A stretch of 64,000 bases of DNA from Actinomycetota bacterium (GTDB taxonomy: Bacteria; Actinomycetota; Acidimicrobiia; Acidimicrobiales; SZUA-35), in NCBI GenBank assembly GCA_039201605.1, contig JBCCRO010000004.1:53327-117326 (forward strand), in the 5' to 3' direction. This document shows positions 8,629-58,505 of the stretch, one piece after another. Each line of letters opens with the position of its first letter. Position 1 is the stretch's first letter. The position numbers and the translations under genes are program-made. The notes beneath the pieces are model-generated. The model worked only from the letters and a program-made list of their open reading frames with translations. It had not been told where the DNA came from and did no database searches.

Positions 8629-10089
8629 CTAGGAATCGGCGTCGATCGGCTCCAGCGGATCCAGATCCTCGATGACGGGTTCGCCCGGATAGTCGGTGAT
8701 GGCGACCACGAACGGGTCCTGGAGCTCGCGCACCTCGGTGTTGGCGATGATCAGCTCGTCGTTGGCCACGTAGGCGAAGGTCAGCCACTGCTCGGGGTCG
8801 GTCACCGAGCGGACGTAGCCCGAGAGCGCCGTCGAGTCGTTGAGGGTGCCGGTCTTGGCGTAGACGTCGCCGGCCGCCGTCGACTCGACGAAGCGGAGAA
8901 GCAGGCTGCCCCGCTCGGCGCCGATCGCGAGCGATCGGGCGAAGTCCGAATCGGGACCGGCGGCGGCGAGCACGGCGGCGATGGCGGCGCAGGTGACCCG
9001 GTTGGTGTCGGCCAGGCCGGAGCCGTCCTCGAGCAACAGCCCGTCGGTCGGCACACCGTCGGTGCGGAGCAGGTCGAGCATCACCCCGCTGCCGGCCACG
9101 GTCGAGCCCTCGCCCGCCCCGAACAGCCCGATGCGCTTGAGGAGGAGCTCGGCGCCGTAGTTGGAGCTGTAGCTGTTGACGTGGGTGACGATCTCCACAA
9201 GGTTCGGCGACGAGATGGCGGCGACCTCGGTGGTGCCCGGCGGGGTCACCCCGGTGGCCGGACCACCCTCGATCTGAACCCCCCGCTCGGCCAGGAGCTG
9301 GTTGAGGACGGCCACCGCGTCCAGGGCGGGGTCCGACGACGGCGAGCGGCCCCGGGCCACGCCGTTGGTGTCGCTGGGCCAGTCGTTGAAACCCTCGTTG
9401 ACGGCGAGGGCCGACAGCGGCCCCGACTGTTGCTGGATCAGGATCCGCTCGGCCCACGGCCCGGCCCGGACCGTGTCGTACAACGACTCGTCGCCGATGA
9501 GGCTGCCCGTCACCGTCACCACGCCGGTGGCGGCGATGTCGTCGGCCAGATCCTCCAACCGGGTGTGGAACCGGCCGTCGGTCTCCTCGTACTGCTCCCA
9601 CCAGTTCTCGGTGGTCAGGTACGGGTCGCCGTCGCCGATCACGTAGAGGTTGCCGTCGAGCACGCCCCCGGCCACGGCCCCGTCGGCCCGGACCTCGGTG
9701 GTGAAGGTGAAATCGGAGCCGAGCAGTTCGAGCGCAGCGTAGGTGGTGAACAGCTTCTGGTTGGACGCCGGGAGGAGCTGGGTCCGGGTGTTCGACGTCG
9801 GCTCCAGCACGCGGTCGCCGGTCTGCACCTGGAGGCAGGTGGCCTCGGGCGAGGCGTCGATCATCGCCTGCAGGACGGGCGCGATCTCGGCGTCGACCAC
9901 GGGGGCCTGCAGGGTGAGCGGGGCCCGGCGGCCCGACAACAGCGGTGTGCCCGGGACCTGCTCGTAGACGATGTCCTCGGTGCTGACCACGTCGGTGTCG
10001 CGATCGAGGGCGGCTCGGTAGGAGCCGAAGGCCACGAGGGCCAGCACGACGGCCAGCCCCCAGACGCGCACCGCCCGCCCGACGTTCAC
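8629..10089 (-). CDS. dacB: D-alanyl-D-alanine carboxypeptidase/endopeptidase (PBP4, peptidase S13)
   Basis: It has the SxxK motif (PASNQKLFT), [11 protein letters not shown] and [15 protein letters not shown] moved the start to GTG at 10089 ([21 protein letters not shown], a signal/anchor sequence), which forms a GTGA overlap with the TetR stop. The upstream part of the 686-aa track ORF is spurious. Confidence 0.88.
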
Positions 10090-11194: not shown

Positions 11195-12399
11195 TCGACC
11201 CGGCGGGTTTCGGGCCCTCGACCGAGGTCGGCTTCGCCGCCGCTGCGTCCCGCCACCCGGAGGCGGCGGTGGCCACCGCCGAGGTGATCGGAGCGATCGA
11301 GGAGCGTCTCGGAGGCCCGCCGTCGCTGGTCGTGCTGTTCGCCTCGGGTGCGATGGTCGAACCGCTGGCGGAGGTCGTCGATGCCGTCCAGACCCTGCTC
11401 AACCCCGATGTGCTCGTCGGCGGCACCGCCGTCGGGGTGCTGGCCGGCGGTGAGGAGATCGAGCAGGGTGACGCCCTGGCCGCCTGGGCCGCAACCGGCG
11501 TGCGAGCCCAGCCGGTCCGCCTCCAGGGCCTGCCGGGCCCGCTGGTGGCCGGGGTCCCCCGCACATTGGCGCCCGGTTCCACCCTGGCCGTCCTGGCCGA
11601 CCCCTACACCCTGGCCGTCGACGCCCTGTTCGAGCAGGTGGCCGCCGACCAGCCCTCGGTCGCCATCGTGGGTGGCTTGGCCTCGGCGCCGGGCGGCCAC
11701 GGGTCCAACCGCCTGATCCTCGACGACACGATCTACGACGACGGCGCCGTCGGCTTCATCCTCGAACCGGGCGTGGCCCGCCCCGTGGTCAGCCAGGGCT
11801 GTCGGCCGATCGGCGAGCCGTGGGTGATCACCGAGGCCGAGGGCCAGCTGGTGCGGGCCCTCGGCGGTCGTCCCGCCTTGGAGCGACTGACCGAGCTGAT
11901 CGAAGCCCTGCCCGAGGAGGATCGGGCCGCCGCCGCCCGGGGCCTCCACGCCGGGCTGGTGGCCAACCACCATCGGGAGCGGTTCGACCAGGGTGACTTC
12001 CTCATCCGGGCCGTCCTCGGCGCCGACCGCAACAGCGGTGCGGTGGCGATCGGGGATCGGGTCGAGATCGGCCAGGTGCTGCAGTTCCAGGTGCGAGACG
12101 CCGACTCGGCCGACCGGGAACTCGCCCGGCTGCTGGGCTCGGAGCCGGCCGAGGCCGCCCTCGTGTTCACCTGCAACGGCCGGGGGACGCACATGTTCGC
12201 CGAGCCGCACCACGATGCCGCCCTGATCTCCGAGGTCTACGGGCCGGCGGTGGCCGGGATGTTCTGTGCCGGGGAGCTGGGTCCGATCGCCGACCGCAAC
12301 GCCGTGCACGGGTTCACGGCGACCGTCCTGGCCTTCGGCGGTGAGCCTGCCGGTGATCACGGCCCTCCCCCGGTGTCCGACGCCCCCGAACCCACCTGA
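11191..12399 (+). CDS. FIST N/C domain sensor-like protein
   Basis: The sequence [20 protein letters not shown]...SLVVLFASG...GGTAVGVL...LVFTCNGRG...MFCAGELGP is typical of FIST_N plus FIST_C. I moved the start to the ATG at 11191. Confidence 0.75.
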   Translation: MIDPAGFGPSTEVGFAAAASRHPEAAVATAEVIGAIEERLGGPPSLVVLFASGAMVEPLAEVVDAVQTLLNPDVLVGGTAVGVLAGGEEIEQGDALAAWAATGVRAQPVRLQGLPGPLVAGVPRTLAPGSTLAVLADPYTLAVDALFEQVAADQPSVAIVGGLASAPGGHGSNRLILDDTIYDDGAVGFILEPGVARPVVSQGCRPIGEPWVITEAEGQLVRALGGRPALERLTELIEALPEEDRAAAARGLHAGLVANHHRERFDQGDFLIRAVLGADRNSGAVAIGDRVEIGQVLQFQVRDADSADRELARLLGSEPAEAALVFTCNGRGTHMFAEPHHDAALISEVYGPAVAGMFCAGELGPIADRNAVHGFTATVLAFGGEPAGDHGPPPVSDAPEPT

Positions 12400-56817: not shown

Positions 56818-57261
56818 CTAGCCCTCGGCCGCCGCCGCGTCGGTGTCGAGGGCGGCGAGGAGCCTGTCGACGAACTCCTCGGCGCCACCGGCCAGGTCGT
56901 CGCGCTTGATGGCGTAGCCGCCGATCACTTCGCCGCCGCGCTCGCCGATGACCCGGGACATGATCGGGAGCGTCTTGCCCACCCGGATGGCGTACGTGCA
57001 GTACACGGCGGCCTTCTTGCCGTCGATGACGGGCAGGTTGGCCAGGCGACCGATGCGGCCCGGCTTCTGCCCGAACAGGAACAACCCGTCGGTCCAGCTG
57101 CCGACGACGACCAGGTCGGCCTCGGACAGCGATTGATGGTGGATCTCCGTGATGGGGCAGGCGACGGCCTCGACCCCGGAGCGGCTCAAGCCGCTGGCGA
57201 TCAGGTGGCCGGCGTCGCGGGTGTTGCCGGTGAGGCTCTCGTAGATGACGATGGCTTTCAT
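56818..57261 (-). CDS. Flavodoxin-like protein
   Basis: MKAIVIYESLTGNTRDAGHLIA...DLVVVGSW. I moved the start to the ATG at 57261. The rest of the 264-aa track ORF is spurious. Confidence 0.8.
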   Translation of the reverse strand: MKAIVIYESLTGNTRDAGHLIASGLSRSGVEAVACPITEIHHQSLSEADLVVVGSWTDGLFLFGQKPGRIGRLANLPVIDGKKAAVYCTYAIRVGKTLPIMSRVIGERGGEVIGGYAIKRDDLAGGAEEFVDRLLAALDTDAAAAEG

Positions 57262-57417
57262 GGCTGGTGAAACCTCTTCGCTACGGGGGGGGTCAAACGG
57301 GCCCCGGCGGCCCGCCCTCGGCGCAAAATCCTGCTCGAAAGGTAGCAGACGGGTGACCTTTCGAGACCAGACCGGCGGATTGGCGGGCTCGGCGCCACCG
57401 GCCAGTACGCTGCGGTC

Positions 57418-57684
57418 ATGGGACACCGGATCGACATCACCTACTGCGTTCCCTGAGACTATTCCGCACGCGCCGTGAGCGCGGCTCAGGACCTCCTCAC
57501 CAACTACCAGCACATCATCGATGAGCTGCGGTTCGTGATGGGCGGCGGCGGTGTGTTCGATGTGACCGTCGACGGTGAGACCATCTACTCCAAGGGCGAG
57601 ACCGGCCGGCACGCCGACGACGGTGAGGTGCTGCGGCTCTTCACCGATCGCTTCGGTGCCGAGGTGGCCCGATACGGCACCTGA
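57418..57684 (+). CDS. SelW/Rdx-family selenoprotein with a CxxU redox motif. In-frame UGA (Sec) at 57454-57456.
   Basis: Hand translation from the ATG at 57418 gives MGHRIDITYCVP-[TGA]-DYSARAVSAAQDLLTNYQHIIDELRFVMGGGGVFDVTVDGETIYSKGETGRH.... The TGA is in frame with track ORF 57475-57684. The sequence fits the Rdx pattern (I-x-Y-C-x-x-C/U ... GGxFxVxVDG...S). A hairpin follows the TGA. Confidence 0.75.
57466..57485 (+). promoter_or_regulatory. Candidate bacterial SECIS hairpin
   Basis: The structure is gc-a-cgcgc [CGUGA] gcgcg-gc: 7 bp with a bulged A and a GU-containing 5-nt apical loop. The loop starts 18 nt after the UGA. Confidence 0.5.
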
Positions 57685-58505
57685 TCCGGGTCGACGACCC
57701 GGTCGACCCTCGCATCGAGGTCTTCCAGGGTCTGCGTGACCACGTGCTGCGCCGACGTCGGGAGGAACCCGGCGGCGACATGGACGGCGTCTTCGTGGCC
57801 GAGGGCGACATCGTCGTCGAACGCGCCGTCGCCGCCGGCTACCGCCTGAGCTCGATCCTGATCGACGGCAAGCGGCGCAAACCGCTCCCCGACGCCGTCG
57901 GTCCCGACGTGCCGGTGTACGCCGCCGGGCCCGAGGTGCTCCAGCGCATCACCGGCTACCACCTCCACCGAGGGATGCTGGCCTGCTTCCATCGGCGACC
58001 CGTGCCGACGGCGGCCGAGATCCTGCCCGGCCTGCGGACGGTGACCGTCATCGAGGGGGTGAACAACCCGACCAACCTCGGCGTGATCCTGCGCTGTGCC
58101 GCCGGTCTCGACGTCGGAGGGTTCCTGCTCGACCCGACCTGCTGCGATCCCCTCTATCGCCGGTCGGCCCGGGTGTCGATGGGCGAGGCCTTCGCCCTTC
58201 CCTACGCCCGACTCGACCCGCTCCCCGACGGGCTGGCCCCCGTTCGGGACCTCGGCATGCGGGTCCTGGCCCTCACCCCGGCCGCCGATGCGGTCGACAT
58301 CGGCGAACTCGAGCTCACGCCGACCGAAACGGTGGCCCTGATGCTCGGCGCCGAGGGACCGGGACTGACCGACGTGGCGTTGGCCGCAGCCGACGTGCGG
58401 GTGCGGATCCCGATGTCGGGCACGGTCGACTCGATCAACGTCGGCTCGGCCGCCGCCGTGGCCTTCTTCGCCGTGCTGCAGGCCCGCCGCCGTCGGAGGG
58501 CCTGA
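57681..58505 (+). CDS. TrmH/SpoU family RNA 2'-O-methyltransferase, probably with a non-canonical CTG start
   Basis: The SpoU motifs are GVNNPTNLGVILR, LMLGAEGPGL and IPMSGTVDSINVGSAAAVA. A conserved-looking N-terminus, (L)IRVDDPVDPRIEVFQGLRDHVLRRRRE, is encoded upstream of the first canonical start (GTG at 57744). The frame is open only from 57627. CTG at 57681 forms a CTGA overlap with the SelW stop. Confidence 0.75.
   Translation: MIRVDDPVDPRIEVFQGLRDHVLRRRREEPGGDMDGVFVAEGDIVVERAVAAGYRLSSILIDGKRRKPLPDAVGPDVPVYAAGPEVLQRITGYHLHRGMLACFHRRPVPTAAEILPGLRTVTVIEGVNNPTNLGVILRCAAGLDVGGFLLDPTCCDPLYRRSARVSMGEAFALPYARLDPLPDGLAPVRDLGMRVLALTPAADAVDIGELELTPTETVALMLGAEGPGLTDVALAAADVRVRIPMSGTVDSINVGSAAAVAFFAVLQARRRRRA

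Follow-up and report, generated by a model that had tools for sequence, protein, structure and literature searches.

We analysed a window of 64,000 nucleotides (nt) of DNA from an Actinomycetota bacterium (Acidimicrobiia; Acidimicrobiales; SZUA-35; assembly GCA_039201605.1, contig JBCCRO010000004.1, positions 53,327-117,326 of the forward strand), and we describe here a short gene at 57418-57684 of this window that probably encodes a selenoprotein of the SelW-like/Rdx family. For this frame the open reading frame (ORF) listing holds nothing but a 69-residue ORF running from a GTG at 57475 to 57684. A preliminary description of the DNA had pointed out that only this ORF is called, and that the same frame extends upstream through an in-frame TGA to an ATG at 57418; the ORF list and our translation confirm this. 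The interval 57418-57684 reads MGHRIDITYCVP, an internal TGA (57454-57456), DYSARAVSAAQDLLTNYQHIIDELRFVMGGGGVFDVTVDGETIYSKGETGRHADDGEVLRLFTDRFGAEVARYGT and a terminal TGA (57682-57684), and the residues after the internal TGA begin with DYSARAVSAAQ and end with ARYGT. We estimate a probability of roughly 90% that the interval encodes an 88-residue, ~9.6 kDa Rdx-family protein in which UGA 57454-57456 is decoded as selenocysteine (Sec) by the standard bacterial Sec insertion. The features of the gene, including a candidate selenocysteine insertion sequence (SECIS), are as follows.

57418-57684, forward strand: predicted complete gene of the SelW-like/Rdx selenoprotein; 88 residues with Sec as residue 13, and a TGA stop of its own at 57682-57684 (from translation, profile and tblastn)
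57418-57420, forward strand: ATG start, 12 codons 5' of the TGA; in-frame starts are present in 81/81 sequences compared
57445-57456, forward strand: putative redox motif C-V-P-U (TGC GTT CCC TGA), with Cys10 at 57445-57447 and Sec13 at the TGA 57454-57456; aligned with CxxC
57457-57467, forward strand: spacer of 11 nt between the UGA and the stem (columns 16-26 of alignment A2)
57468-57484, forward strand: conserved stem-loop of bacterial SECIS type, stem 57468-57473 with 57479-57484, loop CGUGA at 57474-57478; identified by covariation
57475-57477, forward strand: GTG used by ORF finders, which is the invariant GUG of the putative SECIS apical loop and probably not the real start
57541-57594, forward strand: family core GGGGVFDVTVDGETIYSK, residues 42-59, predicted beta strands 2-4; aligned with 3dex and 2fa8

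To assign the family, profile scores were computed with the TGA/U written as Cys. The called 69-residue ORF scores 35.8 bits on the Rdx profile PF10262 and covers profile positions 19-71; because the reconstruction restores 19 N-terminal residues, the score of the 88-residue protein rises to 62.7 bits (cutoff 22.6) and its match extends from profile position 1 to 71 of 74. On TIGR02174 'CXXU_selWTH' the protein reaches 46.6 bits (cutoff 34.2). The NCBIfam equivalog NF041051 (SelTWH_Campy) gives 71.2 bits, under its cutoff of 88, and the protein is therefore related to the Campylobacter-type protein but belongs to another subfamily. Seven solved Rdx structures were matched, the best being SAV_2001 of Streptomyces avermitilis (3DEX, E = 3.4e-11), and in all seven the second Cys of CxxC occupies the TGA column; YCVP-(TGA) aligns column for column with YCTQC (3dex, 2fa8, 2oka) and with YCEPC (2ljk). 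The GGxF-x-V-x-VDG core is also aligned with the solved structures (GTGGVFVVRVDDEVVW in 3dex and STGGLFEITVDGTIIW in 2fa8), and G42, G45, F47, V49, V51, S58 and K59 are invariant in alignment A1. The preliminary description had proposed SelW/Rdx membership, had called for the PF10262 alignment given above, had placed the reconstructed N-terminus (I-T-Y-C-V-P-U) at the CxxC/CxxU site of the family, and had recognized a GGxFEVxVDG-type core downstream. All of these proposals hold, with the TGA exactly on the second Cys and GGGGVFDVTVDGETIYSK aligned with the cores of 3dex and 2fa8. We also examined a structure model of P0002, a full-length homolog 74% identical to the window protein. The model is of low confidence (predicted local distance difference test score, pLDDT, 62; predicted template modelling score, pTM, 0.47) with a predicted alpha1-beta-beta-beta-alpha2 arrangement, and, at this pLDDT, its top 21 PDB fold matches are all bacterial SelW-related (template modelling scores, TM, 0.51-0.64). 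From the profiles and alignments, the product is very probably a protein of the SelT/SelW/SelH (Rdx) family with a predicted thioredoxin fold and a CxxU centre, C10-V-P-U13.

We then asked how the TGA and its surroundings are conserved. A protein search returned 105 relatives, nearly all of 68-70 residues and with their first residues (MSA...) at one shared position, and some of them are labelled at source 'Rdx family protein' or 'selenoprotein W-related protein'. Cys stands at the TGA column in three full-length relatives that are more distant (P0049, P0079 and P0094), which read IEYCVPCDYSA. A scan of GTDB with one genome per species yielded 444 confirmed relatives, and our comparisons use the best 80 of these 444, all of them metagenome-assembled genomes of Acidimicrobiia labelled Acidimicrobiales, Ilumatobacteraceae, 'Ca. 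Microthrix' and similar; the sets of 81 sequences consist of the window and these 80 other species. In 80/80 species the tblastn match spans query residues 1-4 through 86-88, across the TGA. The codon at the Sec position is TGA in 79/80 species and TGT in one (L011), suggesting that Sec is almost fixed in this Acidimicrobiia clade. An in-frame ATG, GTG or TTG lies 11-21 codons 5' of the TGA, with no stop between, in 81/81 sequences, and it is mostly an ATG at -11 to -13. Directly 5' of the TGA, Y-C-V-P is invariant in the protein with free third positions (entropy 1.68 bits for Val and 1.40 bits for Pro), which argues that the sequence upstream of the TGA is translated, and both flanks of the TGA are under purifying selection. 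The gene's own terminator is TGA in 60/81 sequences; thus, TGA remains a stop codon in these genomes and is not reassigned. Three separate Logan assemblies from the organism of the window contain an identical gene, and the organism also occurs in runs SRR22824305, SRR22824306 and SRR22824307. Relatives without the upstream codons, or a family Cys pair away from C-V-P-U, had been named beforehand as observations that would speak against a selenoprotein; what we found is that the upstream codons and the TGA are kept in 79 of the 80 species, with Cys in the remaining one.

Some individual sequences depart from the common pattern. L011 is the sole species among the 80 with TGT (Cys), at 10034-10036, and the hairpin described below is still intact in it; the same contig keeps TGA in two other genes, the UGSC and 479-residue genes described below. 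It seems that Sec was recently converted to Cys here, in a genome still decoding Sec. In L087 (P0002), a 609-bp ENA scaffold, TTA (Leu) replaces the TGA at 369-371 and the hairpin is intact; because of the TTA the gene is called at full length (90 residues). The TTA may be a base error or else a rare null variant, and P0030, which is near-identical to P0002 and comprises 57 member sequences, is truncated as usual. In L057 the SelW-like frame is open for 938 codons upstream of the TGA (5' of 5220), with a normal ATG at -14, and the long open frame is probably a high-GC open-frame artefact, not a fusion protein.

The second component of the gene is the hairpin after the TGA. In the minimum free energy fold of 57466-57485, G57466 pairs with C57485 and C57467 with G57484, A57468 is bulged, and C57469-C57473 pair with G57479-G57483 around the loop CGUGA (57474-57478). 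The conserved element is a stem of 5-6 bp (57468/57469-57473 with 57479-57483/57484) closed by the loop 57474-57478. The bulged A and the two outer pairs are found in the window alone, where A57468 and G57484 are unpaired with each other and the outer pairs G57466-C57485 and C57467-G57484 form instead; the corresponding alignment columns, 27 and 43, simply pair in 63/81 sequences. The preliminary description had drawn the hairpin at 57466-57485 with a bulged A and a CGUGA loop, and this agrees with the minimum free energy fold and, as to stem and loop, with the conserved element, while the bulge and the outer pairs proved to be specific to the window.

To examine the pairing across species, we used the gap-free alignment A2 of 81 sequences, in which a 5-nt loop separates columns 27-32 from their pairing partners, columns 38-43. 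Standard pairs fill 94% of the cells of this stem, and sliding the 3' arm by 1-3 columns reduces this to 15-67%. Changes on both sides were seen in five of the six pairs (for example CG to UA and GC to AU). The observed pairing, double-change count and covariation score were each unmatched in 500 column shuffles, and RNAalifold independently finds the inner four pairs. Several compensations couple a synonymous change with an amino-acid change (Arg CGC to CGU together with Ala GCG to Thr ACG, and Ala GCC to Thr ACC together with Ser AGC to AGU), and protein-level co-evolution does not account for these; other compensations alter both residues (R18...A22 to H18...V22). The alignment thus indicates that the RNA pairing, not the protein, is what selection preserves in the hairpin. 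The loop C-G-U-G is invariant in 81/81 sequences, including the four-fold-degenerate third positions (Ala GCC and Val GUG), and third-position entropy is 0.00-0.72 bits within the hairpin compared with 1.3-1.7 bits at comparable sites outside it. The Cys-type homolog L086 reads AQAFRVT at the hairpin site and has no equivalent hairpin (-6.1 kcal/mol against a mean of -10.3).

The geometry of the element consists of an 11-nt spacer and a stem-loop of 6+5+6 nt, which places the loop CGUGN 17 nt after the A of the UGA and 20 nt from its U. For bacterial SECIS elements, the UGA-to-apical-loop distance ranges from 16 to 37 nt (PMC10778597), and the criteria are a hairpin of 5/6 bp and a G in a small apical loop (PMC4607533, PMC1088965). 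The window hairpin agrees with this published geometry: it is a downstream stem-loop with a small G-containing loop 16-37 nt from the UGA. That the hairpin falls within the range of bacterial SECIS elements had already been suggested, and the loop distance of 17-20 nt, the covariation and the lost synonymous variation support the suggestion.

From these observations we propose that the hairpin starting 11-12 nt after the UGA, with its GC-rich stem of 5-6 bp and its apical loop C-G-U-G-N, acts as a bacterial SECIS. SelB with GTP and Sec-tRNA(Sec) would bind the loop and bring Sec to the UGA in the A site, where its delivery would outcompete release factor 2 at UGA 57454, and the TGA at 57682, which has no hairpin, would terminate translation normally. 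The product may then cycle between the selenol/thiol and selenenylsulfide forms as a thiol-dependent oxidoreductase. SelB binding, selenium incorporation, the presence of selABCD in this genome and the redox function are what we infer; what the comparison shows is the family membership, the equivalence of the Sec and Cys columns, the keeping of the TGA and its two flanks in 79/80 species, and the covariation and synonymous-site constraint in the hairpin.

Several results weigh against this mechanism. ARAGORN found no tRNA gene in the 64-kb window and no tRNA-Sec in 83 related loci (~1.3 Mb), and tblastn with SelA, SelB and SelD of E. coli K-12 gave no match at E up to 1e-3 in the window and the related loci; the statement of the preliminary description that the window has no selA, selB, selC or selD is thereby borne out. 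The window also holds no second selenoprotein gene, with the UGSC and 479-residue genes of related loci (see below) both absent there. A search of the whole window at gathering thresholds found no Rfam SECIS family (RF00031, RF01988-RF01991), and in 57400-57560 a search at E up to 10 gave only noise (WT1-AS_6, snoRNAs) and no SECIS. Taken alone, the hairpin is no stabler than dinucleotide shuffles (z = -1.25 for 61 nt and -0.41 for 42 nt), and the low-confidence model of P0002 does not predict strand beta-1. The support for the hairpin comes only from the cross-species comparison, and a fold of the single sequence would not count as evidence. As to Rfam, its SECIS models are clade-specific and also missed bona fide Acidimicrobiia selenoproteins according to a preprint on Actinomarina (bioRxiv 10.64898/2026.04.03.716425), and the window element appears to be SECIS-like in form and outside every curated Rfam SECIS family. 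As to the machinery, selA, selB, selC and selD are reported in all 84 complete genomes of Actinomarinales, another order of Acidimicrobiia (same preprint).

We scanned the related loci for recurrent in-frame TGA codons with hairpins and found two further TGA gene families 7-8 kb from the SelW-like gene, in both of which the TGA is followed by a conserved hairpin.

L011 1951-2496, TGA at 2251: gene of a UGSC-family (seleno)protein; also in L016, L044, L046, L050, L055, L061, L068 and L075 (nine species)
L011 515-1954, TGA at 854: ORF of 479 residues with a TGA, directly upstream of the UGSC gene; also in L044, L046, L050, L055, L068 and L075 (seven of the nine species)

The UGSC gene scores 153.3 bits on NF041046 (cutoff 125) and also matches PF24696; its motif is EALAD-(TGA)-GSCTTC and its hairpin is GUGCA-GUG-UGCAC. 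The 479-residue protein has a thioredoxin-like N-terminus (CPAC) and a large C-terminal domain without a Pfam/NCBIfam family, with the motif FKPG-(TGA)-GSLT and the hairpin GUCGACCC-CGGGN-GGGUCGAC, in which L050 has a compensatory change. The 120 best matches include 119 full-length (~480-residue) homologs, of which at least 117 have Cys at the TGA column, and the full-length homologs are named only 'thioredoxin' or 'hypothetical', so that the gene is possibly an undescribed selenoprotein form of an uncharacterised family. Since the UGSC and 479-residue TGA genes occur in SelW-bearing genomes, the clade appears to decode Sec at several genes. The L011 copy of the 479-residue gene is called as a 343-residue fragment, and L022 carries distant homologs (30-40% identity) of the two genes, adjoining and on the other strand. 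Within the window, 12 further TGA-plus-hairpin candidates were rejected. Most of them are Arg/Pro-rich off-frame ORFs; the TGA at 12224 precedes the true start codon of a transketolase, and the TGA at 10088 is the normal stop of a TetR-like gene.

Other explanations of the TGA have to be weighed against Sec decoding. If the TGA were a true stop, the real product would be the 69-residue protein from GTG 57475, and the upstream 12 codons would be a non-coding leader or a short upstream ORF. ORF finders and ~100 public gene models give this 69-residue form, the GTG is invariant across species, and the ARAGORN and tblastn searches found no Sec machinery in the window. However, a 69-residue product would lack strand beta-1 and the CxxC/U motif as well as the first part of helix alpha-1, retaining only Rdx positions 19-71, and the upstream 12 codons stay in frame with coding-type substitutions in 81/81 sequences. 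The TGA column holds TGT in one species and TGC/TGT in the three more distant homologs, the GTG lies inside the loop of a covarying hairpin, and the GC-rich stem immediately 5' of the GTG shows, by eye (unscored), no evident purine run of Shine-Dalgarno type. Weighing both sides, we consider a true stop very unlikely.

A second explanation is that the TGA is recoded as a residue other than Sec, by hairpin-stimulated near-cognate read-through (Trp or Cys) or by leaky read-through after loss of the Sec machinery. Downstream hairpins can stimulate read-through in general, and the Sec machinery was not found in the window, both of which fit this explanation. Yet the site coincides with the catalytic Cys/Sec column of a family in which Sec forms are documented (TIGR02174 'CXXU'; PMC1088965), and the invariant loop fits a protein-binding (SelB) site rather than a mere roadblock. 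Furthermore, conversion to Cys, seen for this gene in L011, is the usual course in genomes that give up Sec, and related genomes retain several independent TGA-plus-hairpin genes, which together make non-Sec recoding highly improbable.

The invariant GUG also raises the idea of a dual output, in which the 88-residue selenoprotein is made when selenium is available and, when Sec-tRNA is scarce, translation stops at the UGA and re-initiates 18 nt downstream at the loop GUG. This would yield a 69-residue Sec-less fragment, perhaps with a regulatory or dominant-negative role. SelB binding would already account for the invariance of the GUG, however, and the fragment would be without strand beta-1 and the redox motif, and we regard a dual output as scarcely to be expected. 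Finally, pseudogenes are most often recognised by a single in-frame stop, and the TTA in the 609-bp scaffold of one relative points to base-level noise in metagenome data. The TGA recurs, however, in 79 independent assemblies, each from a different species, and in three Logan assemblies from the organism of the window; with purifying selection on both flanks as well, we consider pseudogene and sequencing- or assembly-error explanations effectively refuted. Decoding of the UGA as Sec thus remains the reading that we prefer.

The genes that flank the SelW-like gene are the following.

56818-57261, reverse strand: flavodoxin-like gene with a weak PF12641 match, divergent from the SelW-like gene and 156 bp from it
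57780-58505, forward strand: SpoU-type methylase, ~95 bp downstream of the SelW-like gene

The arrangement with the flavodoxin-like and SpoU genes is common to only 19/80 related loci, and other neighbours are shared by fewer; therefore, synteny is a weak guide to function. One can imagine a redox partnership with the flavodoxin-like protein, but nothing supports it. A scan of 57200-57800 found no sigma-70 promoter-like or terminator-like site.

The practical value of the analysis lies in annotation. In about 100 database clusters (P0001-P0101) the gene model begins at the loop GUG of the SECIS-type hairpin and gives a fragment of 68-70 residues, an artefact of annotation that runs systematically through NCBI, ENA, JGI and Logan data; the correction would replace the 68-70-residue records with the predicted true selenoprotein of 88 residues. 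The alignment of the element from 81 species of Acidimicrobiia could seed a covariance model for a clade that the Rfam SECIS models miss. In the R-A-V-S-A segment the RNA structure seems to dictate the protein sequence, as in the change of R18/A22 to H18/V22 that keeps the base pairs, and the near-fixed Sec would make the clade a good place to seek the function of bacterial SelW-like proteins. In our limited literature search, no paper dealing with selenoproteins of Acidimicrobiales, Ilumatobacter or Microthrix came up. These results leave the present picture of selenoproteins as it was.

We finally compared the gene and its hairpin with known systems. The minimal element of E. coli fdhF, as Liu and co-workers are said to have reported in 1998, is a 17-nt stem-loop 11 nt after the UGA, and the window element likewise has an 11-nt spacer and a stem-loop of 6+5+6 = 17 nt. 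It differs from the fdhF SECIS in its primary sequence, in having no conserved bulged nucleotide and in matching no Rfam family, and its binding by SelB is putative. Like the general bacterial SECIS consensus (Zhang and Gladyshev 2005), it is a short GC-rich hairpin soon after the UGA with a G in the loop, here an invariant G-U. The gene shares with eukaryotic selenoprotein W and MIEN1/C17orf37 (2LJK) the Rdx family and the position of CxxU/CxxC; identity is low, and unlike the window gene, eukaryotic SelW has a SECIS of another structure in the 3' untranslated region (PMC1088965, Figure 7 legend). The solved Cys-type Rdx proteins SAV_2001 (3DEX), Atu0228 (2FA8), a PA protein (2OKA), 2OBK, 2OJL and 2P0G are homologous to the window protein but differ in having Cys instead of Sec, a C-T-Q-C motif and ~105 residues, at ~20-30% identity.

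The closest likeness is to the bacterial SelW-like (CXXU) proteins, which were described in 2005 (Zhang, Fomenko and Gladyshev, PMC1088965), accounted for 48 genes in the Sargasso Sea survey, more than any other selenoprotein family (PMC1088965), and were catalogued in complete genomes in 2006 (Zhang et al., PMC1794560). The window gene resembles them in its length (~80-100 residues), its N-terminal CxxU with Sec as the second residue, its GGxF-x-V-x-VDG core, its SECIS-type hairpin within the ORF directly 3' of the UGA, and its missed or truncated annotation, a fate that these proteins meet routinely (PMC4607533). It differs from other bacterial SelW-like proteins in the motif C-V-P-U, in belonging to a clade, Acidimicrobiia, that appears nearly fixed for Sec, and in scoring below the NF041051 cutoff. 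In effect, the gene represents an Acidimicrobiia subfamily of the known, long-described SelW-like family, which is abundant and ordinary in marine bacteria, and what is modestly new is the near-fixation of Sec in the clade, a well-supported, clade-specific SECIS-type element outside Rfam, and the systematic truncation of the database entries.

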